A stretch of DNA of 64,000 nt, from positions 29,493 through 93,492 of the forward strand of contig DATKGY010000041.1 of NCBI GenBank assembly GCA_035510535.1. The letters run 5' to 3'. The notes below the pieces were generated by a model. It made no database searches and was not told where the DNA came from. It worked only from the letters and a program-made list of their open reading frames with translations. Positions 1,431 through 48,085 of the stretch are shown piece after piece. The position numbers and the translations under genes were made by a program. Within the stretch, counting starts at the first letter, position 1, and each line of letters begins with the position of its first letter. This stretch comes from Patescibacteria group bacterium. Its GTDB lineage: Bacteria > Patescibacteriota > Microgenomatia > Levybacterales > UBA12049.

Positions 1431-2132
1431 ATGAAATTATCAATTGTCGTTCCGGTATTTAACGAGGAAAAGACAATACTGCAAATCTTAGAAAGACTGA
1501 AAAAAGCCGATATTTCAGTTCCTTACGAAATCATTGTGGTTGATGATGGTTCAACGGATAGTACAAGAGAAAAGTTAAAAACTGTTAGGAATGTAAAAAT
1601 TATTCTCCATAAAAATAATCAGGGCAAAGGGGCCGCGGTAAAGACGGGTATCAAAAATGCGACGGGCGATTATATTTTAATTCAAGATGCAGATTTGGAA
1701 TACAACCCAGATGAAATAAAAGGTTTGTTAAAGCCAATTCTAGAAAATAAAGCAAAGGTTGTCTATGGAACGAGATTAAACAGGGTGCCGCATCTTAAGA
1801 AGGAAGAGGCGAAACACTTATTTATTATCCACTATTTCGGGAATAGATTCTTAAGTCTTGTGACAAGCGCCCTTTACGGTCAGTGGCTAACTGATATGGA
1901 AACCTGTTATAAGTTATTTCCTAAAAAGGCTGTTTCTTCAATTAGGCTTAACGCAAGGGGATTTGAATTTGAACCGGAAGTAACAGCGAAATTATTAAAA
2001 CAAGGATATAAAATAAAAGAGGTTTCAATAACTACAAATCCTAGAGGGTATGATGAAGGCAAAAAATTGAATACTATCAGAGATGGTTCTATTGCTTTAT
2101 GGTCACTCGTAAAATACAGGTTTACAAATTAA
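1431..2132 (+). CDS. GT2 polyprenol-phosphate sugar synthase (DPM1/GtrB-like).
   Basis: N-terminal LSIVVPVFNEE...VVDDGSTDST; DAD/DxD region 'LIQDADLEY'; size typical of the Dpm1 catalytic domain. Confidence 0.85.
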   Translation: MKLSIVVPVFNEEKTILQILERLKKADISVPYEIIVVDDGSTDSTREKLKTVRNVKIILHKNNQGKGAAVKTGIKNATGDYILIQDADLEYNPDEIKGLLKPILENKAKVVYGTRLNRVPHLKKEEAKHLFIIHYFGNRFLSLVTSALYGQWLTDMETCYKLFPKKAVSSIRLNARGFEFEPEVTAKLLKQGYKIKEVSITTNPRGYDEGKKLNTIRDGSIALWSLVKYRFTN

Positions 2133-3760
2133 TTAGAAGAAACATTTATTTAATTCTGCTTTTAATAATTGGGCTGTTTTTTTTATTTCCGCTTTTTCAT
2201 CCGGGATTTTATCTGTCTCATGATGGTTTTGCTCATGTGGCAAGATACGCGGCTTATTTCAAAAGTTACATGGATGGACAATTTCCGGCCAGATGGGCGG
2301 GGGATTTAAATAGCGGTTACGGTACTCCGATTTTTATTTTTTTCTATCCCTTGCCCGGATTTATCGCTACACTTCTGCATCTGGTAGGATTTCATTTTGA
2401 AACAGTGTTCAAAATAATAATGGGCACGAGTTTTATCTTGGCTCCGATTTGTTTGTTCTGGTGGCTAAGAAGACAAGCAAGCGAAGGAATCGCCTTTGCC
2501 GCCTCGCTTATCTATATGATGCTCCCCTATAGATTTTTAGACGCGTATGTTAGGGGAGATGTGGCAGAAATAGCCAGTTTTGTTTTTATCCCGTTGGTTT
2601 TTCTATATATTGACAAAGCTTTAGAGAAAAAAAGAATAAGAGATTTGCTATTTGGCGGGATTTTTTATGCTTTGTTTATTATGACGCATAATGGAATGGC
2701 TATAATATTTTCTCTGGTTTTTCTAACCTACGGCTTAATTTTTGTCAGAAAACGAAAAGAGTTAATTTATCCTTTAGGAATTTTATTACTTGGAATTTGT
2801 CTGTCCGCTTTTTTTACGCTGCCTTTTATATTTGAAACGAAGTATACGATGGCTAAAGTTATTTTGGGTTCATTGTATACGCAAAATTTCATTACTCCTT
2901 GGAACTTATTTTATTCCCAGTGGGGTTTTAATCCTGAGGTCAACGTAAAGGGAGGACTATCTCCTCAAATAGGCATTATCTATTTTATCGCTCCTTTTGT
3001 AAGTTTAGTTTTTTTACTTATGCATAAAATTAAAGAGCAGAGAAAAACTCTTTTTTGGCTGGCGGTTTTTATTCTATCGGTTTTTGTCACAACTTCCTAT
3101 TCGAAGTTTTTATGGGATCATCTTCCATTATTAAACTTGCTTGGTTATCCTTGGAGATTTACGGCTTTGTCAGGCTTTGCCTCATGTATGTTAATTTTTT
3201 ATTGCTTCCTTTTCCTAAAGAACAATAAAATCATCATATTTCTTATTGTTTTAGTTATCTTTATTTTTTCTCTGCCGTTGGTTACCGTCAACAAATATAT
3301 TCCCAGTAAAAGTGACAGTTTTTATCTTGCTTATCCTGGTACCACTGATTATAGTTTGCGGACCGATACTATTTGGACCGCCGGAGAATTTTCAGTCCAC
3401 TCTAAAAAACAAGTTGAAATTATTGCGGGAAAAGGAACGATTTCTGACCTGACGCGGAAATCCAATCTCCACACGTTTAGCGTAAACGCTATAACTTCCA
3501 TGGGAATTCTTGATAATACGGCTTATTTCCCGGGGTGGAAAGTGACAATCGACGGAGAAAAAACTTCCATCCAATTTCAGGACATGGACCACAGAGGTTT
3601 GATGGAGTTTAATGTACCAAGCGGAAAACACAATGTGAGAGTAGAGTTTAAGGAAACCCTGATAAGACTTTTGTCAGACATTGTAAGCGTGGTATCATTA
3701 GTTTTAGTAGCTGCCGTATTGCTCTTAGGAAATAGGCTAAAAAAATATATCCGGAAATGA
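2099..3760 (+). CDS. GT-C-like polytopic membrane protein, family B paralog 1 (HDGxxH N-terminal loop, C-terminal YFPGW motif).
   Basis: 'SHDGFAHVARY...RWAGDLNSGYG' after TM1; about 12 TM helices; C-terminal 'AYFPGWKVTIDG'; paralogous to the ORFs at 14795 and 19919. Confidence 0.6.
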   Translation: MVTRKIQVYKLIRRNIYLILLLIIGLFFLFPLFHPGFYLSHDGFAHVARYAAYFKSYMDGQFPARWAGDLNSGYGTPIFIFFYPLPGFIATLLHLVGFHFETVFKIIMGTSFILAPICLFWWLRRQASEGIAFAASLIYMMLPYRFLDAYVRGDVAEIASFVFIPLVFLYIDKALEKKRIRDLLFGGIFYALFIMTHNGMAIIFSLVFLTYGLIFVRKRKELIYPLGILLLGICLSAFFTLPFIFETKYTMAKVILGSLYTQNFITPWNLFYSQWGFNPEVNVKGGLSPQIGIIYFIAPFVSLVFLLMHKIKEQRKTLFWLAVFILSVFVTTSYSKFLWDHLPLLNLLGYPWRFTALSGFASCMLIFYCFLFLKNNKIIIFLIVLVIFIFSLPLVTVNKYIPSKSDSFYLAYPGTTDYSLRTDTIWTAGEFSVHSKKQVEIIAGKGTISDLTRKSNLHTFSVNAITSMGILDNTAYFPGWKVTIDGEKTSIQFQDMDHRGLMEFNVPSGKHNVRVEFKETLIRLLSDIVSVVSLVLVAAVLLLGNRLKKYIRK

Positions 3761-5454
3761 AAAAAACATATCTTTTTTTAATTTTAATCTTTGCACTTGG
3801 TCTTTTTCTAAGATTCTATAAATTAGGAGAAGTTCCTGTAGGCCTACACACAGATGAAGCATATTTTGGCTATAATGCTTATTCAATTCTAAAGACGGGC
3901 AGAGAAATAACCGGAAATTTTTTACCTCTAAATCTAAAATCATTTTTATTCAGCCCCGCAGGATACTCGTATGCGTCAATTCCATTCATCGTCATTTTTG
4001 GCTTGAGCGCTTTTTCTACCCGTTTTGCTTCTGCGCTGTTTGGTTCTTTGACGATAATCGTGGCTTTTTTCTTGATTCGTCAACTCTTCAAGGTCTTTAA
4101 GAATAAAGAACAGATTGCTTTAGTCGCCGCTTTCTTTTTGGCAATATCTCCTTGGCATATAAACTTGTCCCGCGTTTCTACAGAAAGTGTGCTGGTGGTA
4201 TTTTTTGTGTCACTTGGTGTCCTGTTCTATCTATTTTGGGAAGAGCGTAACCGGTATTATTTTTTGGCTTTAAGTTTATTGGCTTTTGCAGTTAATATCC
4301 TTATTTATCAGGCCGCCCGTAGTTTCCTGCCTTTATTTTTGCCTTTGCTTTTTCTAGTTTTTACGAAGAGGATATTTGTAAAAAGAAATATTTTCCCCAT
4401 TGCCGGTTTTATCTTGTTAATCATTATTCCGGTACTGCTAATTCTTAAATCTCCTGATTTATCAACCAGAATCAGAACGCTTTCTATATTCCAAAATCCC
4501 CAAACGCAATTGGTGTTAAATGAGCAATTAAGGGAGGATGGGGTAATGGGTTTAAACTCATTTGAAGCAAGACTGTTTAACAATAAGCTGGTAGATTATT
4601 CGCTTACTTTTTCCTCCAATTATTTTAAGCATTTCTCCTACGATTTCTTATTCACTGATAACGGTCTGCCCGAAAGATACAGGGTGCCGGGAATGGGGAT
4701 TTTATATCTTTTTGAATTACCTTTAATTGTCTTAGGGATCTGGTACTTATTCAGGCGAAATCAAAAACTTGGACTATTTATAGTCGGGTGGATATTGCTG
4801 GCGCCCGTAGGCAGCGCTTTAACTTTTGATGATGTCCCAAACCTTCAGCGCACTCTAATCGTGTTCCCGGCGCTATCGGTTTTGACGGCGCTAGGCTTTA
4901 TCAATCTACTGAGTATTCTAAAGGTAAACATCAAGAAGGTGCTAATTTTACGCGCCATAACTATTGGTATAGTTTTAATTATTGTATGCAGTTTTTTCTA
5001 TTATCTGCAGGCTTATTACGTACATCAGATAGTTCACCGGCCGTGGTATAGGCAAGAAGGATATCAAAAATTAGTTGGGGAAATCAATAAATATGCCAGA
5101 AACTACCCAAAAGTAATTATTACCAATGCCCAAGTCAATCCGACAATTTTTCTTCTCTTTTATAATCAATACGATCCGGCTAATATTCAAAAAGTTATTC
5201 AATCAAGCCCAGGAGTGGATTATGGCAACACGTCTTTTGCCAAATACCAAATTACCGGCGAAGAGTGTCCGGTAAGGGAAGAAATTTTAACAGACAAAAA
5301 GACGGGGTTAAGCAGTGCTTTTATCACCGGAGAAAAAAGAGTTTTATATGTTGATGACGGAGTATGTAAATTGCCCAACGGTAAAGTAAGAATATTATCC
5401 CAGATTAGACGGTCGGACAATACCTTAGTTTTTCAGTTAGTTACCTTAAAATAG
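3757..5454 (+). CDS. GT39/PMT-like (ArnT-like) polyprenol-P-sugar-dependent membrane glycosyltransferase, tandem paralog 1.
   Basis: 'LRFYKLGEVPVGLHTDEAYFGYNAYSIL' (loop-1 DE motif); polytopic; C-terminal 'IFLLFYNQYDP'; ATGA overlap with the upstream gene. Confidence 0.75.
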   Translation: MKKTYLFLILIFALGLFLRFYKLGEVPVGLHTDEAYFGYNAYSILKTGREITGNFLPLNLKSFLFSPAGYSYASIPFIVIFGLSAFSTRFASALFGSLTIIVAFFLIRQLFKVFKNKEQIALVAAFFLAISPWHINLSRVSTESVLVVFFVSLGVLFYLFWEERNRYYFLALSLLAFAVNILIYQAARSFLPLFLPLLFLVFTKRIFVKRNIFPIAGFILLIIIPVLLILKSPDLSTRIRTLSIFQNPQTQLVLNEQLREDGVMGLNSFEARLFNNKLVDYSLTFSSNYFKHFSYDFLFTDNGLPERYRVPGMGILYLFELPLIVLGIWYLFRRNQKLGLFIVGWILLAPVGSALTFDDVPNLQRTLIVFPALSVLTALGFINLLSILKVNIKKVLILRAITIGIVLIIVCSFFYYLQAYYVHQIVHRPWYRQEGYQKLVGEINKYARNYPKVIITNAQVNPTIFLLFYNQYDPANIQKVIQSSPGVDYGNTSFAKYQITGEECPVREEILTDKKTGLSSAFITGEKRVLYVDDGVCKLPNGKVRILSQIRRSDNTLVFQLVTLK

Positions 5455-5460
5455 TACGTA

Positions 5461-7143
5461 ATGAAGAAATTATTGAATTGGAAATTAGCATTACTTCTGA
5501 TAATCCTGTTGGCGGTTTTTTTAAGGTTCTACCAGTTGGGAAATATTCCCGCCGGCTTTTTAAACGATGAAGCTAACGCCGGATACGATGCTTATTCAAT
5601 ACTGCTTACCGGTAAAGATCAATGGAATAACTTCCTTCCTATCAATAACTTTATTGGTTTTGGTGATTTTCAGCCTCCAGTGAATCGGTATTCACAACTG
5701 CTTCCTATCAAAATTTTCGGGTCCAATGAGTTTTCCGTTAGGTTTATGTCCGCGTTGGCCGGAGTTTTATCTGTCGCCGCTTTATATTTCCTAGTGAAGA
5801 AATTAATTAATTGGAGGGCGGCTTTTTTCTCGGCTTTGCTTCTCGCAATCATGCCATGGGCAGTTGGATTAAATCGAATAGGGCATGAATCTAATCTGGC
5901 CATTTTATTTTTGATTGCCGCGCTTTTTTTCGGCTTGGTGCCAAAATCCGGCAAAAGTTTATTGATTGCTGTCTTTTTCCTCGCATTGTCGATGTATACC
6001 TATTCCGCTTATATTCTTTACGCGCCTTTAGTTTTGGTTGTGGTTCTAGGCGTAAATTACAAAAAGGGGAAAGGATACGGGTATTTACTAAAACCTTTAA
6101 TATTGCTCTTAATTATCATTTCGCCAATTATATTTCAAAAAAATTCTGCTTCGGTCAGATTTTCTCAAGTAGGTTTAACAACTAATGTCAGTAGCGTCGG
6201 TTTAATCAATAATCTTAATGATCAAAGAGGCCAGTGTTTAGCCGCATCCAATCCTTTTATTTGTAAAATAACCGATAACAAAGCGCTTCTTTTCCCCAGC
6301 GTTTTTGTTAAAAATTACTTATCTCATTTTTCCCCTAACTTTTTATACATCAGCGGTACACCGACGCAATTTTCCATTTTGCCCCAACGGGGCTTAGATT
6401 ATCTGTTCAATTTCCTGCCGTTAATCGCGGGAATTATCTTCTTTCTAAAAAATTATAAGCAGCGTAAATTAAGCGGCGCTTTATTCATATTATTTTTACT
6501 TGCTCCAGTACCCGATTCATTTACCAGCGACGGAAACTATACGCGCTCTTCCATGATGCAGCCGTTTATAGCTTTATTCGGCGGGTTAGGGATATATTAT
6601 TGCCTGGATTTCTTAGGAAGAAAAAAATGGTTAGAATATCTATTCACCACTTTAATTTTTCTGGTTATTTCTTTTGCTCTCATTTCCTTTTTTATAATTT
6701 ATAGCACTTACTTTAAAAATAATTATTCTATATATTCCCAATACGGATACAAAGATTTGGTAAAGAAAATCTCCTCGTGCAAAAATGATTACACTAAAAT
6801 CTATATTTCCAGACACCTAAATGATGCTAAGCAATATATCTATTATCTTTTTTATACGAAATATGATCCCCGAAAATATCAAAGTAAAAAAGACGTCAGT
6901 TATAGTGTAGGAGCAGACGGATGGGTATCTGTAGATAGAGTCGAGAACATATATTTTGTGCAGAATCTGCCCACAGTTTCTACGCAATCTGCGGAAACTA
7001 ATTCTGCGGTCCTTTTTATCTCCAACCCAGTCGATTTCCCCAAATCGCTAAAGCCTGTATTTGTCGTAAAAGATAAATTAGGGAATGTAATATTTGAAGC
7101 AGTGAGATCAACGGATTTGCTAGAATATATAAATAGGGAGTAA
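5461..7143 (+). CDS. GT39/PMT-like membrane glycosyltransferase, tandem paralog 2.
   Basis: 'LRFYQLGNIPAGFLNDEANAGYDAYSIL'; C-terminal 'YIYYLFYTKYDP'. Confidence 0.75.
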   Translation: MKKLLNWKLALLLIILLAVFLRFYQLGNIPAGFLNDEANAGYDAYSILLTGKDQWNNFLPINNFIGFGDFQPPVNRYSQLLPIKIFGSNEFSVRFMSALAGVLSVAALYFLVKKLINWRAAFFSALLLAIMPWAVGLNRIGHESNLAILFLIAALFFGLVPKSGKSLLIAVFFLALSMYTYSAYILYAPLVLVVVLGVNYKKGKGYGYLLKPLILLLIIISPIIFQKNSASVRFSQVGLTTNVSSVGLINNLNDQRGQCLAASNPFICKITDNKALLFPSVFVKNYLSHFSPNFLYISGTPTQFSILPQRGLDYLFNFLPLIAGIIFFLKNYKQRKLSGALFILFLLAPVPDSFTSDGNYTRSSMMQPFIALFGGLGIYYCLDFLGRKKWLEYLFTTLIFLVISFALISFFIIYSTYFKNNYSIYSQYGYKDLVKKISSCKNDYTKIYISRHLNDAKQYIYYLFYTKYDPRKYQSKKDVSYSVGADGWVSVDRVENIYFVQNLPTVSTQSAETNSAVLFISNPVDFPKSLKPVFVVKDKLGNVIFEAVRSTDLLEYINRE

Positions 7144-7165
7144 GAAAAATTGTGACTTAAAGAAA

Positions 7166-8794
7166 ATGTTCAAATTTATTAATTACAAATTACTGTTACT
7201 TTTAGTAGTAATAATCGCGGCATTTTTAAGGTTTTATCAATTGGGAAGCAATCCGCCTTCTTTAACTTGGGATGAGGCGGCTTGGGGATACAATGCTTAT
7301 TCAATCGGTATTGACGGGAAAGACGAATTTGGCCGGCTTTTGCCCCACGATTATCTTGAGTCTTTCGGCGATTTTAAACCACCGATGTATGTGTATCTGG
7401 ATGCTATTCCGGTAAAAGCTCTAGGACTAAATGAGTTTGCCACCAGAGTTCCATCCGCTTTATTTGGAGTTTTAACAGTTTTCTTAACTTATTTTCTGGT
7501 TCAAAGAATCTTCTGGAACTCAAAAGATAAACGGAAATACGCGCTTGCGTCAGCGTTTATCTTGGCAATTTCCCCGTGGCACATTATGTTGTCACGGGCC
7601 GCCTTTGAAGCCAATGTGGCAACTTTTTTCCTCGTCTTAGGAATCTGGGGATTTCTGGCGGCAACGCAGGATAAAAAATGGTACCTTTTAATTTCCGCCG
7701 TTTCTTTTGCTCTGTCAATGTACACTTTTAACACGGCAAGAGTCGTTGCTCCGCTTTTGGTAATTATTCTAGTATTGGCATTCAGAAAAAGATTATGGCA
7801 AATAAAAAAAGAAGTATTAATTGCGTTTATCATTGGGTTAGCGGTTTTCTTGCCTACTTTCCGGTTTCTGCTTACTCCGCAAGCGGCCTTGAGATTTCAA
7901 GAGGTCAATATTTTTTCGGATCCAAGCATCGTCAAAACCGCCAATCAGGAAATTGCCAATGACCAAAACGCATTCTGGTCAAAAATAATCCACAACCGAA
8001 GAGTGTTGTATTCTCTGGATTATGTCAAACACTATTTTGATAATTTAAGTCCCAGTTTCCTTTTTATCAAAGGAGATGGTAATCCTAAATTCTCAATTCA
8101 AAGCGTCGGGCAAATGTATCTTTGGGACATTCCGTTTGTCGTCATCGGAATCTTATTCTTAATCAGGAAAAAAGAGGGGCATTGGTGGTTAGTGCCGTTG
8201 TGGCTTTTAATCGGCATAATTCCTGCCGCAACCGCCGAGCAAACGCCGCATGCTTTGAGAATTGAAGCGAGTTTGCCAACGTTTCAAATAATTAGCGCTT
8301 ACGGTTTAATTATATTTCTATCAATGGTTAAGCGTTTTAGGTACGTAGTAGCGGCTGTTTTAATTGGCTTACTGTTGATAAATCTAGCATATTTTTGTCA
8401 CGATTATTTTGCCCATTATCCATCTGAGTTTTCCGGCGAGTGGCAATATGGCTACAAACAATCAATAGATTACGTGAAATCCGTAGAGAAAAATTATGAT
8501 TACGTCCAAGTTACCAGCGAACTGGGAAGGCCTTATATCTACTATCTTTTTTACACCAAAACGTTGCCATCCGATTACCGGAAAACTGCTGTCATTCAGC
8601 GGGACGCGTTTGGGTTTGTCACGGTTACGGGTTTTGGCAAATATCGATTTCCCGTTAATTATAATTATAGTTTGAGCAAAACAAAAAAAGTGCTTTACGT
8701 TAATACGCCTTATATCTTACCCAAAAACATTAAGATCCTTAAAACATTTTATTTATTAAACGGACAACCGGTTTTGGTTGCATATACGATATGA
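7166..8794 (+). CDS. GT39/PMT-like membrane glycosyltransferase, tandem paralog 3.
   Basis: 'LRFYQLGSNPPSLTWDEAAWGYNAYSIG'; C-terminal 'YIYYLFYTKTLP'. Confidence 0.75.
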   Translation: MFKFINYKLLLLLVVIIAAFLRFYQLGSNPPSLTWDEAAWGYNAYSIGIDGKDEFGRLLPHDYLESFGDFKPPMYVYLDAIPVKALGLNEFATRVPSALFGVLTVFLTYFLVQRIFWNSKDKRKYALASAFILAISPWHIMLSRAAFEANVATFFLVLGIWGFLAATQDKKWYLLISAVSFALSMYTFNTARVVAPLLVIILVLAFRKRLWQIKKEVLIAFIIGLAVFLPTFRFLLTPQAALRFQEVNIFSDPSIVKTANQEIANDQNAFWSKIIHNRRVLYSLDYVKHYFDNLSPSFLFIKGDGNPKFSIQSVGQMYLWDIPFVVIGILFLIRKKEGHWWLVPLWLLIGIIPAATAEQTPHALRIEASLPTFQIISAYGLIIFLSMVKRFRYVVAAVLIGLLLINLAYFCHDYFAHYPSEFSGEWQYGYKQSIDYVKSVEKNYDYVQVTSELGRPYIYYLFYTKTLPSDYRKTAVIQRDAFGFVTVTGFGKYRFPVNYNYSLSKTKKVLYVNTPYILPKNIKILKTFYLLNGQPVLVAYTI

Positions 8795-10458
8795 ATAAGA
8801 AATTAGTTTTAATAATACTGATGGGAATAATAATTTTGGCAGCCGGATTAAGGCTTTGGCAGCTTGGCAATATTCCGCCTTCGCCTGACTGGGACGAGGT
8901 GGCGTTGGGATATGATGCCTATTCGATTAGTCATACGGGGCGTGATGAATTTGGAAAGTTCCTGCCGGTAGTTCTTCGTTCATTTGACGATTACAAACCA
9001 GCTTTATATGCCTATCTTGCGGTTCCGGCGGTGGTAACTTTCGGTTTGAGTGTTTTTGCAGTTAGACTTCCTTCGGCCGTTTCCGGAATAATTTCGGTGA
9101 TTGCCGTTTTCTTTTTAATTCGGGAGCTTTTCCGGAATTATCGGTACAAAGATTGGTTAGCTTTGACTGCAAGTTTCATGCTGGCAATTTCTCCCTGGTC
9201 TTTGCAATTCTCCAGAGTTGGGTTTGAAGCAAATGTCGGGGATTGCCTAAATCTTTTAGCAGCTTTATTTTTCATCAAGGGCATAAACAACAGACGGTGG
9301 TTCTTATTTTTGTCGGCGCTTTTTGCCGGACTGAGTATTTATGTTTATCAAAGCGAAAAAGTCTTTACGCCACTTTTCATTCTTTTGTTGGCCGTAATTT
9401 ATTGGAGGGAATTATTCAAAATCCCTAAAAAATATTTGTTTGCGGTAATAGTTTTTGGTTTAATCATCGTGACGCCGATGCTTACTTATATAGTTACCAA
9501 CCGGGCAGCACTTTTAAGAGTAACGGGGACGAGCATTTTTTCCTACCAGACGGAGCTTTTAAAAACGGATACGCAGAAACTGCAACAGGATAAGAGTAAT
9601 AATGATAAATCGGGTTTGGTTTTGGACAACCGAAGAATTGTCTATACCGTAACCACAGTTTCCGGCTATATTTCACATTTTGACCCGAATTGGTTGTTTA
9701 TCTCAGGGGATATTGATAGACATCACGCGCCGGGAATGGGGATTTTGTATCTTTTCGAGTTGCCGCTGATACTTTTAGGGATATACGCGCTTTTATTTGG
9801 TGAATTTGACAAAAAAACAAAATTAATTATTTTTGGCTGGTTACTGCTTGCTCCGGTTCCTGCCTCCATCACAACCGGAGTCCCGCATGCGGTCAGAACG
9901 CTTAACTTTTTACCGACTTGGCAAATCTTGTCGGCGTTGGGGTTAGTTTCGGGATATTTGCTGCTTTCTAAAATGAGATTCCAAGTATCAAAGGTTAAGC
10001 TGTGGTATCTGCTTGCCCCTGTGTTTCTGGTATTTGCGCTGTTTAATATCAGTTACTATCTTAACCAGTATTTTGTCCAACTTAATTATTACGATTCCGC
10101 TTTTTGGCAATACGGTTACAAACAGGCGGTTGACGAAGTCAAACTTTTGCAAAAAAATTACAAAACAATCCTGATTTCCGATAACGCGCCGTTGGATAAA
10201 TCCTATATGTTTTTCCTGTTCTATCTTCAATATCCGCCACAGCTATATCAGCAAGTTGGTGAGAATAGCTCGGGAAGTTTTGTTTCCCATCATTCTTTCG
10301 GAAAATACACCTTTAGGCCAATTGATTGGAACAAAGATTCAAAACTCAAAGATGCTTTGATAATCGGTAGCCCGAAGGAGATTCCCCAAGGCGTGGGAAC
10401 AATTAAAACAATAAATAATCTAGATGGGACGCCGGCGATAAAAATTGTTGGAACATGA
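8791..10458 (+). CDS. GT39/PMT-like membrane glycosyltransferase, tandem paralog 4.
   Basis: 'LRLWQLGNIPPSPDWDEVALGYDAYSIS'; C-terminal 'YMFFLFYLQYPP'; ATGA overlap upstream. Confidence 0.75.
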   Translation: MNKKLVLIILMGIIILAAGLRLWQLGNIPPSPDWDEVALGYDAYSISHTGRDEFGKFLPVVLRSFDDYKPALYAYLAVPAVVTFGLSVFAVRLPSAVSGIISVIAVFFLIRELFRNYRYKDWLALTASFMLAISPWSLQFSRVGFEANVGDCLNLLAALFFIKGINNRRWFLFLSALFAGLSIYVYQSEKVFTPLFILLLAVIYWRELFKIPKKYLFAVIVFGLIIVTPMLTYIVTNRAALLRVTGTSIFSYQTELLKTDTQKLQQDKSNNDKSGLVLDNRRIVYTVTTVSGYISHFDPNWLFISGDIDRHHAPGMGILYLFELPLILLGIYALLFGEFDKKTKLIIFGWLLLAPVPASITTGVPHAVRTLNFLPTWQILSALGLVSGYLLLSKMRFQVSKVKLWYLLAPVFLVFALFNISYYLNQYFVQLNYYDSAFWQYGYKQAVDEVKLLQKNYKTILISDNAPLDKSYMFFLFYLQYPPQLYQQVGENSSGSFVSHHSFGKYTFRPIDWNKDSKLKDALIIGSPKEIPQGVGTIKTINNLDGTPAIKIVGT

Positions 10459-11990
10459 AGATAAGAATTAAAACTCAAAAATCAAAACTCAAAAATCTTC
10501 TCAGGATATATATCTTTAGTCCTATCTCATACGCTTTGCTTGCAATTATTTTGGTAGGTTCCTTTTTAAGATTGCAGGGAGTTTTTACCAATTCATTTGC
10601 TTTTACCTACGACGTTGGCAGAGATATGTTGGCGCTTTCAAATATTGTCCACTTTCATAGAATTCCTCTCATCGGAGCAACAACCGGATTGCCCGGAATC
10701 TTCTATGGTCCATGGTGGTATTATTTCTTGACCCCGTTTTTTATTCTATTTTCGGGAAATCCCCAAGGGATAGCCTTGACGATGTCATCAATAGGCATTT
10801 TGACTATAGCGATTGGTTTTGTCTTGGGAAAAAGATTGGGAGGAAATCTTTTAGGCTTAATTCTTGCCGCAGTAATTAGTGTTTCTTCCGTAATGGTTTC
10901 CTTGTCCGCTCAAATCTGGAACCCGAATATTTCGCCAATGTTTGTCATGCTAGGGTTATTGGTTCTAGAGAAGCTGCATAAAGAAGTTAAAAAAGACAAG
11001 CCAAAATATTATTTGCTACTTGGACTTCTTTTGGCTTTTGTGATTGACCTTGAAATAGTTTTTGGTCTTTTATTGGCGTTGGGGATTATCTTTTCAGTAT
11101 TAATTATTAATAGAAGCAGAATAAGCTTAAAAGATATTGTTTTTTTTGCTTTTGGCGGATTAATTATTCTTGCCCCAAGAATAATTTTTGAATTAAGACA
11201 CCAGTTTTTAATGACAAAGTCCTTCTTAGGATTGCTTGGGAAAACAGGAGTGCATCAGTCCGGTACGCTTTTGAGTCTTCTTGGTAATCGGTTGGGAGCG
11301 CTCTCGGATCAGTTCAATGGAACAATTGGTGCAAGTAATGAATTCGCCGGTTTGATTATCCTGCTGTTTATAATATTTTCTATAGCAGTCTTTTATAAAA
11401 AATCTGCAGAAGAGATAAAGAATTTGATTAAAACTTCCGTAACCGTAATCTTGATTTTTTTATTGGGAACAGTTTTCTTTAGTCATGATATTTGGCCGCA
11501 TTATTTGGTTGGCCTACCGGTTTTTTACCTTTTACTTTTTGCAATTGCCGTTTATTTATTGGCGAAAAATGTTTCGATAAAATTGGCGGTTTTAATAGCG
11601 CTAATAGTATTTCTTGCTAATCTAAATCCTTATTCTCAAATCCAAAATCTTAGTAAACCTTTGTGGGAAGGGGACGCATCCGTTTACCGTAACCAAGTTG
11701 CCGTTATTGATTATGTCTATAAACAAGCCGCCGGAAAGTCTTTTAAGTATGTTGTTTACACGCCGCCGGTCTATGATTACACCTATCAATATCTTTTTAA
11801 CTGGTATGGCCCTAAAAATTATCATTATTCACCGTCAAGTCAATCACATCTGGCATATTTTATTCTTGAGCCGGATTACCAAGATTCCGCAAGGCTAAGC
11901 AATTGGTTAAAACAGAGGGAAGCAGATGGGCTAATAATCAGGTCGCAAGAAGTAAAGGGCGGAATTATTGTCCAGACAAGAATACATTAA
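10455..11990 (+). CDS. GT-C-like polytopic membrane protein, family C paralog 1 (GRD...GP(W/L)YYY motif).
   Basis: 'TYDVGRDMLALSNIVHFHRIPLIGATTGLPGIFYGPWWYYFL'; C-terminal 'YTYQYLFNWYGPKNY'; paralogous to the ORFs at 13306 and 11994. Confidence 0.55.
   Translation: MKIRIKTQKSKLKNLLRIYIFSPISYALLAIILVGSFLRLQGVFTNSFAFTYDVGRDMLALSNIVHFHRIPLIGATTGLPGIFYGPWWYYFLTPFFILFSGNPQGIALTMSSIGILTIAIGFVLGKRLGGNLLGLILAAVISVSSVMVSLSAQIWNPNISPMFVMLGLLVLEKLHKEVKKDKPKYYLLLGLLLAFVIDLEIVFGLLLALGIIFSVLIINRSRISLKDIVFFAFGGLIILAPRIIFELRHQFLMTKSFLGLLGKTGVHQSGTLLSLLGNRLGALSDQFNGTIGASNEFAGLIILLFIIFSIAVFYKKSAEEIKNLIKTSVTVILIFLLGTVFFSHDIWPHYLVGLPVFYLLLFAIAVYLLAKNVSIKLAVLIALIVFLANLNPYSQIQNLSKPLWEGDASVYRNQVAVIDYVYKQAAGKSFKYVVYTPPVYDYTYQYLFNWYGPKNYHYSPSSQSHLAYFILEPDYQDSARLSNWLKQREADGLIIRSQEVKGGIIVQTRIH
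10470..10497. repeat. 14-nt unit (two heptamers, AAAACTC AAAAATC) x2 at the 5' end of the GT-C gene at 10455.
   Basis: aaaactcaaaaatcaaaactcaaaaatc; encodes KTQKSKLKNL. Confidence 0.8.
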
Positions 11991-11993
11991 TTT

Positions 11994-13295
11994 ATGAAAA
12001 GAACGCAAACATATTGGAAATCACTTTTTAGAAAGAAATATTTACTTTTAGTTTTTGGGATTTTCCTATTTGAATTATTTTTAAGAACTTATAATTTAGG
12101 TTTTAAAGATCCTTTCGGATTTGATCAGGTTGATAATGCCTGGGCTGCTAAAAATATTATCATCAATCATTGGTATCCTTTGGTGGGAATGGTGGCAAAG
12201 ACAGACAGCGGAATTTTTATCGGCCCGGCATACTATTATTTCGCCGCCTTTTTCTATTGGATATATAATTTAAATCCCATTGCTTCCGAAGCGATAGCCG
12301 TTGTCAGTGCAGTTTTTACTTTTTGGACAATATTCTATGTAGTTAAGAAACTATTTTGCGTGGAAATAGCAATTATTGCGCTACTTATTAATACTTTCTG
12401 TTTTAATACGATTCTTTTCGACGGGATACAATGGCCGGTACAATTACTTCCCGCGGTCTCTTTAATAATTTTTTATCTACTTTATAGAGTAATCCTAGGT
12501 GATGTCAAAAAATTAATTCCCTTGGCAATTGCGATCGGGGTTGCTTTAAACTTACATTTTACGGCGATATTTTTTCCAATCATTGTAATACTAACTTTAC
12601 CATTATTCCCCCGGACAAAAGAAACGCTCAAGTACATTTTAATTTCTTTTCCTTGTTTTTTTGTTTGGTTGATTCCCAACTTAGCGTCGTTCTTACTGAA
12701 TAAGACTTCTGCCTCAGCCGGTGGAGGATATCTTACAACTTATTTTTTAGGCTTTCATCTTAGAAGAATGCTGCAGTTAACCGGCGACGCCATAATTCAA
12801 TTTGATCCATACTTGCTTTTGGCTAAGATTAAGCCCCTAAAAGTAATTATCTTACCTGTTTTCATGTTGGTTTATTTATTCAAATCATTTAATTCAGCTG
12901 GAAGGAAATTTGTTTATTTGGTTTTATTATGGTTCTTAATCCCATGGCTGGTATTTACAACTTATGGCGGGGAAATAAGTGATTACTATTTTATTATTAG
13001 CCGATTTGTGGCGCTGATAATACTTTCTTACTTCATTTACTTAGTTTGGAACACTAAAAATATACTCGCGAAACTATTTGTCGTTTTATTTTTGATAATT
13101 TATTGTGCGTACGGATTCATTACCTTTCTTCCCTATAAAGACGAAGGCAGTTTATATAAGCATGAACAAGCGGCAAAACAGGTAGTCGACAGCGGAAGAA
13201 GAATAGAATTCCAAGTGGGTGTACCCGAGTCTTATTTATATTATTATTACATGAGGCAAAAGGGGATAGCGGTATATATATCAAAATATAGATAG
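11994..13295 (+). CDS. GT-C-like polytopic membrane protein, divergent member of family C.
   Basis: 'FDQVDNAWAAKNIIINHWYPLVGMVAKTDSGIFIGPAYYYF' aligns with the GRD...GPxYYY loop of the ORFs at 10455 and 13306. Confidence 0.5.
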   Translation: MKRTQTYWKSLFRKKYLLLVFGIFLFELFLRTYNLGFKDPFGFDQVDNAWAAKNIIINHWYPLVGMVAKTDSGIFIGPAYYYFAAFFYWIYNLNPIASEAIAVVSAVFTFWTIFYVVKKLFCVEIAIIALLINTFCFNTILFDGIQWPVQLLPAVSLIIFYLLYRVILGDVKKLIPLAIAIGVALNLHFTAIFFPIIVILTLPLFPRTKETLKYILISFPCFFVWLIPNLASFLLNKTSASAGGGYLTTYFLGFHLRRMLQLTGDAIIQFDPYLLLAKIKPLKVIILPVFMLVYLFKSFNSAGRKFVYLVLLWFLIPWLVFTTYGGEISDYYFIISRFVALIILSYFIYLVWNTKNILAKLFVVLFLIIYCAYGFITFLPYKDEGSLYKHEQAAKQVVDSGRRIEFQVGVPESYLYYYYMRQKGIAVYISKYR

Positions 13296-13305
13296 AATTT
13301 AACAA

Positions 13306-14805
13306 ATGAAAAAATATCTAGTTGCTTTAAACAATTTTAAGTATCGAAACCCATTATGCTTATGTATTCTTTTTGTCATCGGATTTTTGCTGAGAATTTA
13401 TTTGATTGGCCAGAATTTATTTTTCGGACCGGAGCAGGGAAGAGACATGCTGGTGGTTAAAAGTATTGTCATAGATCATAAACTCGTGCTAATCGGCCCA
13501 ACGACTGCAGTTGAAGGCATTTACCACGGTCCCTTATATTATTACCTTTCCACAATCCCCTTCTTTTTTAGCAAAGGTAATCCCCTTTTTATAGCCTTAT
13601 TTTTTATTTTCCTTAACGCTTTATCCGTATTCTTAGTGTATCTGGTCGGGAAAGAATTGTTTTCCAGAAAAATAGGGTTAATCGCGTCTTTATTTTTTAC
13701 ATTTTCTTTCGGCGCGGTGGTAATGGCGAGATGGTTGTCTCATCCTCCGCTAATTATTCCAGTCTGCTGTTTGTTTTTTCTGTTTTTAGCCAAGTTTATA
13801 AAGGGAAATAATAAATATTTAATTCCAACGGCTATTATTTATGGAGTCGCGACGCAAACGGAATTTTCCAACCTGATAATTTTTACTTTCATTACTTTTT
13901 TTGCGGTGGTTGTTTTTAGGAAAAGATTTCTTGAACAAAAAATAATCAGTTTACTTATTGCGCTTGCTTTGGTGATTTTGCTACCTATATTCAATTTTGT
14001 TCTTTTTGATTTAAGACATAACTTTTTAATTACCAGAAGTCTAATAAAATCTCAGGCGCACAGACCGCAATTTGTAGGTTATTTTTTGCATACCCTAACT
14101 GGCTCAATCTGGCAGTTTATGCAAGTTTTTTCCGATGTGGTTAGTCCGTTGCATTTGTTAGTTGCCGCGGTTATTTTTATCGCCGCCTTTTTTGCGCTGA
14201 TTAAATTAAGAGATAAATATAAAACCGGAACGGCATTGATGTTAATCTGGTTGTTTTCTCCTTTTGTCGCCTTTATTCTTCTTCGCTATAACCCTTTGTA
14301 TCATTATTTTACCGCTTCCATTATTGCAATTATCATCTTGATTGTCGTTCTTGTAGATTATCTCTCATCTCTCAAAAGAGGAGTTGGTTTAATTGCGATA
14401 GGCATATTGGTCGCGTTTAATTTATGGTCACTGCATGCTTATTTGCCTAATAATCTCAATGTATTTTTTCAATCCACTCAGCCCGATTTGAAATATAAAG
14501 ACCAGCAAGCAGTTATACAAAGAATATACAAAGAGGCTAACGGGACACCCTTTTATTATCAGGCTTATACCATTCCTTACTGGATGCAGGATGGGTGGCA
14601 ATATCTTTTCTGGTATTACGGTAAACAGTATGGATATCTTCCCAAGCAAACGAATAAGGGTTTGTTGTTTGTTATAATTCAGGATGACCCAAGCACTAAG
14701 CTTTATCAAACCAATTGGCTTAGGGACACGGTTAGCAAATGGGGAATAGAAGAGAATGAATTTAAATACGGGATATTAACCGTAGAGAAAAGATATGTTC
14801 AATAA
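13306..14805 (+). CDS. GT-C-like polytopic membrane protein, family C paralog.
   Basis: 'FGPEQGRDMLVVKSIVIDHKLVLIGPTTAVEGIYHGPLYYYL'; C-terminal 'WQYLFWYYGKQYGY'. Confidence 0.55.
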   Translation: MKKYLVALNNFKYRNPLCLCILFVIGFLLRIYLIGQNLFFGPEQGRDMLVVKSIVIDHKLVLIGPTTAVEGIYHGPLYYYLSTIPFFFSKGNPLFIALFFIFLNALSVFLVYLVGKELFSRKIGLIASLFFTFSFGAVVMARWLSHPPLIIPVCCLFFLFLAKFIKGNNKYLIPTAIIYGVATQTEFSNLIIFTFITFFAVVVFRKRFLEQKIISLLIALALVILLPIFNFVLFDLRHNFLITRSLIKSQAHRPQFVGYFLHTLTGSIWQFMQVFSDVVSPLHLLVAAVIFIAAFFALIKLRDKYKTGTALMLIWLFSPFVAFILLRYNPLYHYFTASIIAIIILIVVLVDYLSSLKRGVGLIAIGILVAFNLWSLHAYLPNNLNVFFQSTQPDLKYKDQQAVIQRIYKEANGTPFYYQAYTIPYWMQDGWQYLFWYYGKQYGYLPKQTNKGLLFVIIQDDPSTKLYQTNWLRDTVSKWGIEENEFKYGILTVEKRYVQ

Positions 14806-16450
14806 TTTTAAGAAAAAAAATAATTTACTTTTTGTCTTAGTCACGGTTTTTTTATTGCTAGTTCCGATTGTTTCCTTAGCGCATAGCGGTTTGCCGATAA
14901 CGCATGACGGACAGGACCATGTCGCAAGAATCGCCAATTTTTATCAAAATCTTTTGGAAGGTAATTTAATTCCCAGATGGGCTGCCAATCTTAACTGGGG
15001 ATACGGCCACCCGATTTTGGAATTTTTATATCCCCTGCCTTCTTATTTCGCTTCTTTCTTTCATCTGGTTGGTTTTTCTTTGGTTGACGCGACAAAAATT
15101 GTTTATGGTTTGGGGATGGTTTTGTCGTTGTCTTTTATGTTTTTATGGCTTAAGCAATTTTTGGGCAAAGAGCCGGCGCTTCTGGGAGCCTTTTTGTACA
15201 CTTATGCCCCTTATAGATTCGTTGATCTTTATGTTAGAGGAGATATCGGCGAAAATTTGGCTTTTGCTTTTGTACCCCTGATTTTATATTTTATTTTCAA
15301 GCTTTATAAAAAGCCTAAGCTAATATATTCATTGCTGGGTGCTTTGTCTTTAGCGCTTTTGATACTCTCGCATAATGCGATTGCTCTTATAACCGTACCG
15401 TTTATTTTATTTTACGCTATATACCTTATTTGGTTGTCCAAATTCAATAAATCATTAATCATTAATCTTTCATCCTTAATCATTTTCGGTTTTGCCCTGT
15501 CGGCCTTTTTCTGGGCGCCGGCATTGTTAGAGGGTAAATACACACTTCGCAATATCGTTACAAAAGGCACGTATGTAAATAGTTTTGTTAGTTTTAAAGC
15601 TTTGATTTACGGGCCATGGAGCTATGGCGGGAGCGGTGAATTTACTGTTCAATTAGGTATTATTCAATGGCTGGGTTTAATTCTGTCCCCGGTTTTGGCT
15701 ATTCTCTTTTGGTTTAAAAAAGATAAAAGATACCTACTTGTTTTAGCATGTCTTCTGTATACTTTGTTAGCGATATTTTTAATGCTACCGATATCAAATT
15801 TTCTTTGGACAAAAATAATGCTTTTGCAAAACTTCCAATTTCCATGGCGTTTTTTGGCTATTACGGTTCTTTCAACCTCAATATTGGCGGCTTTGCTAAT
15901 TTATAAACTTCCCAAGAAGTTACAGCTTGTCACGGTATTAATTTTAATCGCAGTAGTTTTGTTTATAAGTAAAGATTATCTAAAGGCCAAAGATTATTTG
16001 TATAAACCGGCAGGTTTTTATACAGGAATATATAATGGTACAACCGATACCGGTGAAAGTTCACCTATCTGGTCAGTACGGTTCATGGAGCATGCACCAA
16101 AAGCGCATTTGGAGATGCTTGACGGAAAAGCCACTATTAAGGGAATAAAAAGAACTTCTACGGATCATCTCTATACGGTTAATGTCGCAAAGAGGACTTT
16201 ATTTGAAGAAAACACCCTTTATTTCCCGGGCTGGCAGATAAAAGTCAATAACGTTCCGGTTAGCATTGAATTTCAGGACATGCAATATCGGGGAACGATG
16301 TTATTTATCTTAGATAAAGGAAATTATGTCGTCGAAGCAAAATATTCGGAGACAAAATTACGGTTAATTTGCGACTTAGTATCTTTAATCAGTTTAATAT
16401 CTCTGGCCGGATTATTTGGCTTCGGGTTTGTAAAGACAAAGCTTTCTTAG
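14795..16450 (+). CDS. GT-C-like polytopic membrane protein, family B paralog 2.
   Basis: 'LAHSGLPITHDGQDHVARI...RWAANLNWGYG'; C-terminal 'LYFPGWQIKVNN...FQDM'. Confidence 0.6.
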   Translation: MFNNFKKKNNLLFVLVTVFLLLVPIVSLAHSGLPITHDGQDHVARIANFYQNLLEGNLIPRWAANLNWGYGHPILEFLYPLPSYFASFFHLVGFSLVDATKIVYGLGMVLSLSFMFLWLKQFLGKEPALLGAFLYTYAPYRFVDLYVRGDIGENLAFAFVPLILYFIFKLYKKPKLIYSLLGALSLALLILSHNAIALITVPFILFYAIYLIWLSKFNKSLIINLSSLIIFGFALSAFFWAPALLEGKYTLRNIVTKGTYVNSFVSFKALIYGPWSYGGSGEFTVQLGIIQWLGLILSPVLAILFWFKKDKRYLLVLACLLYTLLAIFLMLPISNFLWTKIMLLQNFQFPWRFLAITVLSTSILAALLIYKLPKKLQLVTVLILIAVVLFISKDYLKAKDYLYKPAGFYTGIYNGTTDTGESSPIWSVRFMEHAPKAHLEMLDGKATIKGIKRTSTDHLYTVNVAKRTLFEENTLYFPGWQIKVNNVPVSIEFQDMQYRGTMLFILDKGNYVVEAKYSETKLRLICDLVSLISLISLAGLFGFGFVKTKLS

Positions 16451-18289: not shown

Positions 18290-18813
18290 TAAGAAAAGTT
18301 AAACTTTTTACCTTCCTTATATCAATTTTGTTCTTGTCTGCTCTGCCTTCTTATGCTTCATCAACATACGTCTTGCCATATCCTTCGACCATGCCGGGAA
18401 GCATTTTTTATAAAATTCATTTGGTTGAAGAAACAGTTTTAAGGTATTGGTATTTCGGCGACTTTGGGCAATTTACTTATAATCTTAAAGAATCTGATAA
18501 ATATCTCGTTGAAGCAAAAACACTTTTTGAATATAATCAATATCTGCTAGGCTACGAAGCTTTAAAAAAGTCAGACGTATATTTCAGCAAGACGCTTCCT
18601 TATCTTTTAAAGGCTCAGAAACAAGGTAAGGACATTTCGGCAAATCGGGATTTACTTTCTCAGGCTGCCTTAAAACATAAAGAGGTTTTATTGACGGTAA
18701 AGCAAGAAGTTCCGCCGGTTTTTAATTGGACTCCGGAAAAATCAGCTTTAACCGTACTTAATCTTAAAGCGGCGATAGACGCCTCAATAGCAATAAGAGA
18801 TAAATACCTATGA
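18286..18813 (+). CDS. Small secreted protein of unknown function. Signal peptide followed by an S/T/P-rich segment.
   Basis: 'MIRKVKLFTFLISILFLSALPSYA|SSTYVLPYPSTMPGS'; no TM beyond the signal peptide. Confidence 0.5.
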   Translation: MIRKVKLFTFLISILFLSALPSYASSTYVLPYPSTMPGSIFYKIHLVEETVLRYWYFGDFGQFTYNLKESDKYLVEAKTLFEYNQYLLGYEALKKSDVYFSKTLPYLLKAQKQGKDISANRDLLSQAALKHKEVLLTVKQEVPPVFNWTPEKSALTVLNLKAAIDASIAIRDKYL

Positions 18814-19946
18814 AAAAAATGTTTCTTGGAGTTTACTCAATCTTTTTAGTTTGCTTAGCTATTTTTTCCTATGCTTTTGTCGACCCCAATCTTTTATTTT
18901 TAAGAAAACTCTATACCGGTTTATATGCGACTAACCGGCCTTTTGTAACTTTGGCTTTCATTTTTTTAGTCCTTATTTTTTTTGGATTTTATACTTTATT
19001 CTTATATTGGTTTAGGCAAAAAGTTTTCGGAAATAACGAGTTTAAGTTTATCTTAATAAGCACCGTAGTTTTTCTATTTTTAGCATATCCGGCGATGGTT
19101 TCATACGATATTTTCAATTACGTCGCTACGGCAAAAGCACTGTTTTTTTATCATGAAAATCCGTACATCATTATGCCGATACAATTCTTGCACGATCCTC
19201 TACTATTGTTTATGCAGGCAGCCAATAAAACCGCGCTATACGGACCTTTTTGGATATTTTTGACCGGAATTCCATATTTGTCGGGATTTGGAAATTTCGC
19301 AGTAACTCTTTTTGCTTTTAAGCTTTTTAATACTATTTTTTATTTGGCGTCAATAGCTCTTCTCTATAAAATGTCGAAAAATATTTACTATCTTTCATTT
19401 TTCGCCTTCAACCCCCTGGTTATTTTTGAAACTTTGGTAAGTAGTCATAACGATATTGTGATGATGTTTTTTGCCATTCTTACAATTTACTTCCTAAAGA
19501 ATAAAAAACTGATATTGTCAATTATTTTAATTATTCTCTCGATATTAATTAAATATTCAACCGTATTTTTGCTCCCCGTTATTTTATACGCAATGTTTTA
19601 TCAATTAAGGAATAAAAAACTAGAGTGGGAGAAAATTTTTCTCTGGTTTTCAATTTCGATGCTTGTGATCTTTCTCTTGTCACAAATACGCGAAGAGATA
19701 TATCCCTGGTACGCGATTTGGTTTTTGATTTTCCTTCCTTTTATTCGAAATAAATTAATTAAATATATTTACTTAAGCTTTTCTTTCGGACTCTTATTTA
19801 GATATGTGCCATTTATGCTATTAGGAACTTATTTTGGTACTACTCCTCTAATCAAAAATTTTATGACTTTTATTCCGGTGGGAGTAACGATTTTATTTCT
19901 AGCTCTTAAAAAATTTATATGGCAAAAATCTTCAAACCGATTTTAA
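18810..19946 (+). CDS. Polytopic membrane protein, possibly a small GT-C/mannosyltransferase-like protein.
   Basis: About 10 hydrophobic helices; sits inside the GT-C array; no soluble catalytic motif recognised. Confidence 0.4.
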   Translation: MKKMFLGVYSIFLVCLAIFSYAFVDPNLLFLRKLYTGLYATNRPFVTLAFIFLVLIFFGFYTLFLYWFRQKVFGNNEFKFILISTVVFLFLAYPAMVSYDIFNYVATAKALFFYHENPYIIMPIQFLHDPLLLFMQAANKTALYGPFWIFLTGIPYLSGFGNFAVTLFAFKLFNTIFYLASIALLYKMSKNIYYLSFFAFNPLVIFETLVSSHNDIVMMFFAILTIYFLKNKKLILSIILIILSILIKYSTVFLLPVILYAMFYQLRNKKLEWEKIFLWFSISMLVIFLLSQIREEIYPWYAIWFLIFLPFIRNKLIKYIYLSFSFGLLFRYVPFMLLGTYFGTTPLIKNFMTFIPVGVTILFLALKKFIWQKSSNRF

Positions 19947-31528: not shown

Positions 31529-31972
31529 TTATTTTTTGTTGCGCTTTGGTCTTCCTGCAGAGCCTGTAGGGTGTATTGTTCGATACTTTTTCATTATGGA
31601 TGGTGATACGCGAAAAGTGTCAGACTCATAATCATTTCCGCCTCTTTTTCCTTCCGAAAAGGTAATAAATTGATTATCTTCAATAATTTCAAGCGCATGT
31701 ACCTCATTTGGACCAGTTGTTACCATTTCGCCTTCGTGAATAACGACGCTTTTTACTTTACTATTGTCCTCGTCAAGTTTTCGATAGTAATACCTAAGAC
31801 TTCCCCTCGTCATATATATGTGCTGAGTAGTATATCTATGATAGTGATCTCCGCGAAACGCACCCTTTTTTGAATTCATCACCGCTACGTGATCAATGCG
31901 ATGATTATAAAATATATCCGAGATATTTCCCCGATTATCCTTGGTTGCAATTTTTATTTTTGTTTTTATCAT
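31529..31972 (-). CDS. Cupin-fold protein, possibly a sugar 3,4-ketoisomerase (FdtA/WxcM-like).
   Basis: 147 aa; His-rich 'FRGDHYHRYTTQHIY'; last gene of the minus-strand GDP-sugar operon. Confidence 0.45.
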   Translation of the reverse strand: MIKTKIKIATKDNRGNISDIFYNHRIDHVAVMNSKKGAFRGDHYHRYTTQHIYMTRGSLRYYYRKLDEDNSKVKSVVIHEGEMVTTGPNEVHALEIIEDNQFITFSEGKRGGNDYESDTFRVSPSIMKKYRTIHPTGSAGRPKRNKK

Positions 31973-48046: not shown

Positions 48047-48085
48047 TATCTGGAAATATTTGGTAATATCTGGAAGTATATGGAA
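48047..48085. promoter_or_regulatory. Two tandem ~19-nt direct repeats (ATATCTGGAARTATWTGG) overlapping the fic start codon. Candidate operator or insertion junction.
   Basis: atatctggaaatatttggta / atatctggaagtatatggaa read directly. Confidence 0.4.

Follow-up and report, generated by a model that had tools for sequence, protein, structure and literature searches.

A conserved tandem array of PMT_2-type GT-C glycosyltransferase genes in a surface-glycan island of Candidatus Levybacteria

What do four consecutive membrane glycosyltransferase genes of one family do in a member of the Patescibacteria, and how old is their arrangement? The question is raised by a 64,000-nt stretch of DNA (hereafter the window) from a Patescibacteria group bacterium of the order Levybacterales (assembly GCA_035510535.1, contig DATKGY010000041.1, positions 29,493 to 93,492 of the forward strand). 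An initial description made from the letters alone (the sequence-only reading) singled out four consecutive open reading frames (ORFs) of 540-565 amino acids (aa), at 3757-10458 of the window, as GT39-type transferases related to protein mannosyltransferases (PMTs); the coordinates are exactly as it gave them, and all four ORFs are on the + strand. We refer to these ORFs by the working names P1-P4 and to their wider family as the P family. We found that the array is real and that its fold superfamily had been named correctly; the array is less exceptional in its own lineage, and larger, than the sequence-only reading saw. The four proteins probably decorate a surface glycoconjugate, each as a transferase of its own specificity that depends on a polyprenyl-phosphate sugar, a reading that leaves the acceptor open.

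P1-P4 are full-length paralogs with likeness far beyond chance: in BLASTP comparisons the pairs are 31-35% identical over ~480-556 aligned residues, with E-values between 3e-43 and 4e-106. Both first-loop motifs that had been pointed out are present in all four proteins. LR(F/L)(Y/W)xLG closes the first transmembrane (TM) helix, TM1, and DE(A/V)xxGY(N/D)AYSI follows 8-10 residues on in the alignment; the variants HTDEAYFGYN, LNDEANAGYD, TWDEAAWGYN and DWDEVALGYD had been quoted correctly. A tyrosine-rich motif said to end the proteins is found elsewhere: WQYGYK and PYIYYLFY stand where the C-terminal domain starts and midway along it, 75-130 residues short of the end. The intergenic distances, described as 0-22 bp or overlaps, were measured as +6, +22 and −4 nt (the last an ATGA overlap). 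Such tight spacing is consistent with the proposed co-transcription. Promoter and terminator scans returned sites no more frequently than in shuffled sequence, and thus neither support nor break the operon idea.

All four proteins score above the gathering cutoff (26.1 bits) of the Pfam family PMT_2 (PF13231), with 44.4, 63.1, 57.3 and 45.3 bits for P1 to P4. They are therefore members of the broad PMT_2 family of the GT-C superfamily. The narrower GT39/PMT identity is not supported. PMTs are defined by PF02366 (PMT) and PF16192 (PMT_4TMC) together (PMC12331936). The Pfam scan found the PMT_4TMC C-terminal four-helix module in none of the four proteins; PF02366 is matched by P3 (48 bits, cutoff 22.7) and at E ≤ 0.01 has no match in P1, P2 or P4, while precomputed PF02366 matches exist for many P1 orthologs. 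When PDB sequences were searched with a profile of the P family, only ArnT was retrieved (5ezm, E 6e-4 to 2e-3, ~165 residues, 12% identity, with a shared KPP motif at the start of the aligned segment) and no yeast PMT chain. An NCBIfam scan of P1-P4 gave only sub-threshold matches to Agl23 and archaeal STT3; membership in the Agl23 subfamily (TIGR03663) was rejected, with scores of 42.6-47.9 bits for P1-P3 against a cutoff of 126.25 and no match for P4. Membership in GT39/PMT and in GT83/ArnT is not established. All four genes are already public at NCBI as ‘glycosyltransferase family 39 protein [Patescibacteria group bacterium]’, a generic name for a well-known enzyme class. This label derives from PMT_2 and is not evidence of protein O-mannosylation, a caution for the annotation of these proteins.

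The same results bear on a second reading, in which P1-P4 are true protein O-glycosyltransferases of GT39/PMT-like type, each modifying Ser/Thr residues of different secreted or surface proteins (pilins, S-layer) in parallel with the eukaryotic Pmt1/2/4 subfamilies or TMTC1-4. GT-C enzymes that glucosylate Ser/Thr-rich surface proteins have been described (PMC12041528). We consider this reading possible, with the balance against it. In contrast to the PMTs of GT39 (yeast Pmt1-Pmt2, Pmt4 and M. tuberculosis PMT), the four proteins lack both the PMT_4TMC module and a MIR domain, three of them do not reach PF02366, and all carry an extra C-terminal soluble domain that is not a PMT feature. The profile search, which retrieved ArnT and no yeast PMT, also speaks against it, as does the polysaccharide-type locus, in which Wzx and a Wzy_C-like protein are encoded beside numerous GT2 and GT4 genes.

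The structure of P3 was predicted with AlphaFold from an 86-sequence alignment across all paralog groups (pLDDT 94.7, pTM 0.93); an earlier AF2 model from 14 close orthologs was discarded (pLDDT 66, below 50 in the DE loop). A Foldseek search of the PDB with the P3 model returned ArnT at the top (E 6e-9), followed by AglB/STT3 and Pmt4. Judged by the model, which matches solved GT-C enzymes, the GT-C fold predicted by the sequence-only reading is secure for the family. Structural closeness is equal for ArnT, STT3B, Pmt4 and ALG12, so the structure makes no choice among GT83, GT39 and GT66.

ArnT (CAZy GT83; PDB 5ezm/5f15) is the undecaprenyl-phosphate-L-Ara4N:lipid A transferase. It ranks first in both structure searches and is the sole PDB sequence match, the shared KPP motif opens the aligned segment, its TM core with a C-terminal external domain resembles the P3 model, and several orthologs are named ‘Ara4N transferase-like’ by the Joint Genome Institute. 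These observations would suit an ArnT-like (GT83-type) decoration of a membrane lipid or lipid-anchored polymer, such as a lipoteichoic-acid-like glycolipid, that changes surface charge or resistance to antimicrobial peptides. Such a role appears improbable to us. At 12% identity and E ~1e-3 the resemblance is weak, and structure brings ArnT no closer than STT3 or Pmt4. ArnT has 13 TM helices, whereas the P3 model has 11, and the C-terminal domain of the P family is family-specific, without detectable sequence relation to that of ArnT. ArnT is one gene, while 4-9 conserved paralogs would not be needed for one lipid modification. No ArnA/B/D-type genes of the Ara4N pathway were seen in Pfam scans of the window. 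Finally, Patescibacteria are not known to have lipid A/LPS (lipopolysaccharide), the acceptor of ArnT, and the organism should have no lipid A acceptor.

The P3 model consists of 11 TM helices and a C-terminal alpha/beta domain of ~120 aa, in agreement with the architecture read from sequence (TM1, about ten further helices and a soluble C-terminal domain). Model helices and hydropathy place the N-terminus inside and the C-terminus outside. The loops assigned to the cytoplasm are short and flanked by K/R clusters (KDKRK, DKK, RKRLWQIKK, RKK and KRFR), loop 1 is acidic, and the pattern agrees with the positive-inside rule. Since the DE loop follows TM1 of an N-in protein with this pattern, the dyad is predicted to lie in the first extracytoplasmic loop and not on the cytoplasmic face. 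GT-C enzymes bear their catalytic acid on the outer face. The Asp-Glu pair (D36-E37 of P3) is invariant in 86 of 86 aligned family members.

Across all four orthogroups 47 positions are conserved: 27 extracytoplasmic, 20 in the membrane and none cytoplasmic. They include, beside D36-E37 in loop 1, R144 and E148 in loop 2, R243 in the large loop 4 and R365 in loop 5. The Arg-x3-Glu pair R144/E148 on the second outside loop is comparable to the second conserved acidic residue that PMTs and oligosaccharyltransferases have on loop 2, e.g. D176 of MtPMT (PMC12331936). P1-P4 retain every universally conserved position and, on this ground, all look catalytically competent. Another 11 positions are fixed within each orthogroup and different among groups; eight of them are extracytoplasmic (loops 3-5 and the C-terminal domain), which gives modest support to divergent substrate recognition.

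Pfam searches with the four C-terminal domains at E ≤ 1 gave nothing meaningful. Matches to the domain were limited to 557 clusters out of 1.84 billion representatives; each of the full-length proteins listed is ~530-600 aa long and carries it at the C-terminus. We therefore take it as a signature of the P subfamily. By analogy with the founder of GT136, a GT-C enzyme with a C-terminal carbohydrate-binding module (PMC11127046), the domain is presumed to be the likeliest acceptor-binding element.

To place the array in its lineage we compared 80 species-representative P3 loci, with ORFs classified against the window proteins. P3 is the most conserved member (55-86% identity among orthologs in Candidatus Levybacteria genomes). 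A P4 ortholog follows P3 directly in 70 of 75 loci, mostly with the same 4-nt ATGA overlap. Of the 53 loci that extend at least 9 kb downstream, 52 have P4, 34 the PTPS_related gene starting at 14795, 23 the gene at 11994 and 20 the one at 10455. Upstream of P3, a P1 ortholog was found in 17 of 58 loci and a P2 ortholog in nine; P2 is the rarest of the four orthogroups by loci. P3-P4 is thus a conserved core, and P1 and P2 are variable accessory members. The 21.6-kb neighbourhoods contain medians of three P-family, five PMT_2-like and nine GT-C-like genes, and four consecutive P-family genes occur in 11 of 45 loci. Four such genes in tandem had been called unusual; within Levybacteria, synteny in related loci makes arrays of this kind the rule.

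Clustering of 245 P-family sequences produced orthogroups of 81 (P3), 73 (P4), 21 (P1) and 11 (P2) sequences and no fewer than 15 smaller groups; P3 and P4 are each other's sister group. Identity is 51-60% inside orthogroups and 29-36% between them, which indicates that the duplications predate the radiation of these species. Aligning the four had been suggested as a way to tell duplication in situ from assembly out of different sources, and the outcome is neither in a recent form. Recent in-situ duplication was rejected (paralogs ~30% identical, orthologs 51-60%), and so was recent assembly from foreign sources, because the four orthogroups are native to the same lineage and keep the same order. 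Judged by sequence divergence, P1-P4 are ancient paralogs maintained in tandem. Old, separately conserved orthogroups are consistent with the earlier suggestion of different specificities and not dosage.

Tandem paralogs of the same family could in principle be a simple amplification, and most related species do without P1 and P2. We give very little credence, though, to the view that P1-P4 are redundant or decaying duplicates (dosage or pseudo-enzymes) without functional differentiation. All four keep every universal position, including D/E, R144 and E148; the orthogroups have been held at 51-60% across many species while the paralogs drifted to ~30%; a recent amplification would leave near-identical copies; and the ORF calls show no frameshifts or truncations.

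In ~20 Levybacteria species an extra P4-like paralog (35-42% identity to P4) lies downstream of the P4 ortholog, mostly directly after it (e.g. in loci L024, L029, L030, L035 and L040). These paralogs form their own cluster of 18 sequences and are absent from the window; on either side of the P3-P4 core the accessory set therefore varies from one species to another. Many of the species-representative genomes with a clearly Levybacteria-type locus (L006, L007, L014, L015 and ~30 others were noted) bear the title ‘uncultured Gammaproteobacteria bacterium’; a single one is called ‘Candidatus Limnocylindrales’ and another ‘Candidatus Paceibacterota’. The taxonomy in such titles seems to be a placeholder or an error.

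Four genes are also not the unit. The window, a ~64-kb surface-glycan island of a Levybacteria metagenome contig, has at least 12 demonstrable GT-C genes, nine of PMT_2 type and three of PTPS_related/YfhO type (Table 1). The limits of P1-P4 are an arbitrary slice, as the genes on either side (2099-3760 and 10455-11990) are GT-C genes too and share 4 nt with P1 and P4, respectively. About 23 genes run on one strand from 33 to 31515, with gaps of −34 to +39 nt. The three PTPS_related/YfhO proteins are mutually 32-35% identical. The two tabulated GT2 proteins are closest to Dol-P-Man synthase, ArnC and GtrB; enzymes of this type make polyprenyl-phosphate sugars, the donors for GT-C enzymes. The rest of the window is devoted to sugar-nucleotide and glycan biosynthesis, with many more GT2 and GT4 genes and with GDP-mannose dehydratase, UDP-glucose dehydrogenase, RmlC, epimerases, methyltransferases and MBOAT. 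Neither Rfam nor tRNA scans found anything in the window. The contig is 95.5 kb long, and just upstream of the window it carries another YfhO gene, a GT2 gene and a gene for a 647-aa membrane protein.

Table 1. Features of the P1-P4 array and of the surrounding glycan genes (coordinates in the window)
Feature	Position	Strand	Length (aa)	Remarks
GT2	1431-2132	+	233	best solved relatives Dol-P-Man synthase (full length), ArnC, GtrB; candidate polyprenyl-phosphate-sugar synthase making the lipid-linked donor
PTPS_related (YfhO-like) GT-C	2099-3760	+	553	overlaps P1 start by 4 nt
P1	3757-5454	+	565	GT-C (PMT_2) paralog; NCBI HUD09763.1
P1 Asp33-Glu34 codons	3853-3858	+		predicted catalytic dyad, extracytoplasmic loop 1
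P2	5461-7143	+	560	GT-C (PMT_2) paralog; NCBI HUD09764.1
P2 Asp36-Glu37 codons	5566-5571	+		predicted dyad, alignment
P3	7166-8794	+	542	GT-C paralog, PMT_2 and PMT matches; NCBI HUD09765.1
P3 Asp36-Glu37 codons	7271-7276	+		predicted dyad; invariant in 86/86 aligned members
P3 C-terminal extracytoplasmic alpha/beta domain	8429-8791	+	121	residues 422-542; model
P4	8791-10458	+	555	GT-C (PMT_2) paralog; NCBI HUD09766.1
P4 Asp35-Glu36 codons	8893-8898	+		predicted dyad, alignment
PMT_2 protein, second subfamily (C/D/E)	10455-11990	+	511	overlaps P4 stop by 4 nt
C/D/E subfamily member	11994-13295	+	433	PMT_2 below gathering score; homologous to 13306-14805, E 3e-14
PMT_2 protein, C/D/E subfamily	13306-14805	+	499	Pfam, BLASTP
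PTPS_related GT-C	14795-16450	+	551	Pfam, BLASTP
PTPS_related/YfhO GT-C	19919-21565	+	548	third paralog of this type; homology
Wzx-type (Polysacc_synt) flippase	22592-23914	+	440	Pfam; candidate exporter of lipid-linked sugars
GT2	23954-24703	+	249	second Dpm1/GtrB-like candidate polyprenyl-phosphate-sugar synthase; homology
PMT_2 and PMT matches	26850-28178	+	442	Pfam
PMT_2 protein	55934-57379	+	481	Pfam; far end of glycan island

Homology, fold, topology, conservation and synteny are direct results, while donor, acceptor, heteromer and operon are inferred in the following proposal. Cytoplasmic Dpm1/GtrB-like GT2 enzymes of the same gene string would load a sugar on polyprenyl phosphate, and the lipid-linked sugar would then be flipped across the membrane. 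Each paralog would act as an inverting enzyme and pass the sugar to its own position or acceptor in a surface glycoconjugate (a wall polysaccharide or a surface glycoprotein). P3-P4, the conserved core, may work as a heteromer, in analogy to EmbA-EmbB and Pmt1-Pmt2, while P1 and P2 would be the lineage-variable accessories that diversify the glycan. P1-P4 would thus be a segment of an extracytoplasmic glycan-building or -decorating assembly with at least 12 GT-C enzymes, set in the ~23-gene co-directional run.

By arrangement and not by sequence, the array has its closest precedent in the mycobacterial embC-embA-embB genes with the Aft/Mpt GT-C set (arabinogalactan and lipoarabinomannan; PDB 7bvf and others). 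There too, tandem paralogous GT-C genes form one transcription unit, and every enzyme uses a polyprenyl-phosphate sugar to make its own linkage outside the membrane; EmbA-EmbB is a heterodimer according to the title of the PDB entry. Three-component systems of extracytoplasmic glycosylation (GtrA/GtrB/GtrC, CsbB/GtcA/YfhO, the GT136 system and the streptococcal GtrB-PgtC2) combine a GT2 polyprenyl-phosphate-sugar synthase, a flippase and a GT-C transferase. The window likewise has Dpm1/GtrB-like GT2 genes and YfhO/PTPS_related genes beside P1-P4. Where these systems have one GT2 to one GT-C, the window has a string of at least 12 GT-C genes, and a flippase of GtrA type was not seen.

Several points weigh against the proposal of lipid-linked-sugar transferases. 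All evidence is computational. Co-transcription of P1-P4 is deduced solely from gene spacing, and the heteromer from conserved adjacency, translational overlap and analogy. The P3 model brings the family no nearer to any single characterized GT-C enzyme, and the group-specific residue signal is small, with 11 positions. A GtrA-type small flippase was not found in the window. Four further large membrane proteins could not be confirmed as GT-C by hhalign. The family profile was uninformative (probabilities of 0.2-3.4%) against the single sequences of 18810-19946, 43265-45403 and the 647-aa upstream protein, as it was against 2099-3760, and it matched the C-terminal half of the protein at 51665-54841 weakly. 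The further polytopic proteins are therefore possible and not demonstrated GT-C enzymes.

The polytopic membrane proteins of 712 aa (43265-45403), 378 aa (18810-19946) and 647 aa (L001 2322-4265) belong to no Pfam family. Like the nearby YfhO/PTPS_related proteins, the 712-aa protein combines several N-terminal TM helices with a soluble C-terminal part and one last TM helix; orthologs of the 378-aa protein recur beside the array in many Levybacteria loci. In the 1058-aa polytopic protein at 51665-54841, the N-terminal half matches Wzy_C (O-antigen ligase/polymerase) weakly. The C-terminal half was aligned, again weakly, to the first-loop region of the P family (hhalign E 7e-4, probability 26%), where FFIGDDFTW faces the DE motif. 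The protein may be a ligase/polymerase-GT-C fusion; orthologs with 46-49% identity lie within 10 kb of P3 in L055 and L066.

A bolder extension, which we offer as speculation and regard as unlikely, is that Levybacteria, with genomes of ~1 Mb, reserve a conserved set of a dozen or more GT-C enzymes for a complex surface glycan built largely extracellularly from polyprenyl-phosphate monosaccharides. P3-P4 would be its obligate heteromeric core enzyme, and swappable P1, P2 and other members would create serotype-like diversity governing host attachment or phage susceptibility. If true, the lineage would have an extracytoplasmic assembly line that bears comparison with the synthesis of mycobacterial arabinan or with the lumenal ALG pathway.

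Patescibacteria (CPR, for candidate phyla radiation) are abundant, almost uncultured and appear to live attached to other microbes, which makes their surface chemistry central to their biology. The glycan island may take up perhaps 5% of a ~1 Mb genome. A conserved P3-P4 pair with variable accessory GT-C genes in a large island points to a heavily elaborated, diversifying surface glycan. Targets for expression or glycomics are P3-P4, their D-E and R-x3-E residues, which are invariant, and the C-terminal domain that is specific to the family. In the open-access literature we found no description of a GT-C or GT39 expansion in Levybacteria/CPR, nor of a lineage-wide ordered GT-C array with a conserved P3-P4 core; none of the CPR papers checked for glycosylation-related terms contained them.

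Some other features of the window were observed on the way. In a 1.1-kb gap between two glycan genes lie ORFs of 109 aa (54956-55285, +) and 90 aa (55312-55584, +), the second with an XRE-type helix-turn-helix sequence (QKELANKLG..., by eye). By the same by-eye judgement, the two look like a type II toxin-antitoxin pair (HigB/RelE-like and HigA-like) inserted in the island. A Fic/DOC and DeoR-HTH protein (48080-49057) stands between an ORF with only the GT4 N-terminal domain (190 aa, 47471-48043) and a complete GT4 gene (49062-50183); the Fic/DOC gene may have been inserted there, splitting or displacing a glycosyltransferase gene. The MBOAT O-acyltransferase (60620-62101, −) has a 1-nt overlap with a 320-aa partner (59658-60620, −) showing a faint GDSL/SGNH match, and the pair resembles glycan O-acetylation systems of AlgI/AlgJ or PatA/PatB type. 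At the switch of gene orientation, a 147-aa ORF (31529-31972, −), whose only match is Polysacc_synt_C (the flippase C-terminal domain), is probably a truncated flippase remnant. A transketolase is encoded in two pieces, an N-terminal ORF of 273 aa and a C-terminal one of 329 aa with a 64-nt overlap (40944-42691), set among sugar-nucleotide enzymes and not among genes of central metabolism.

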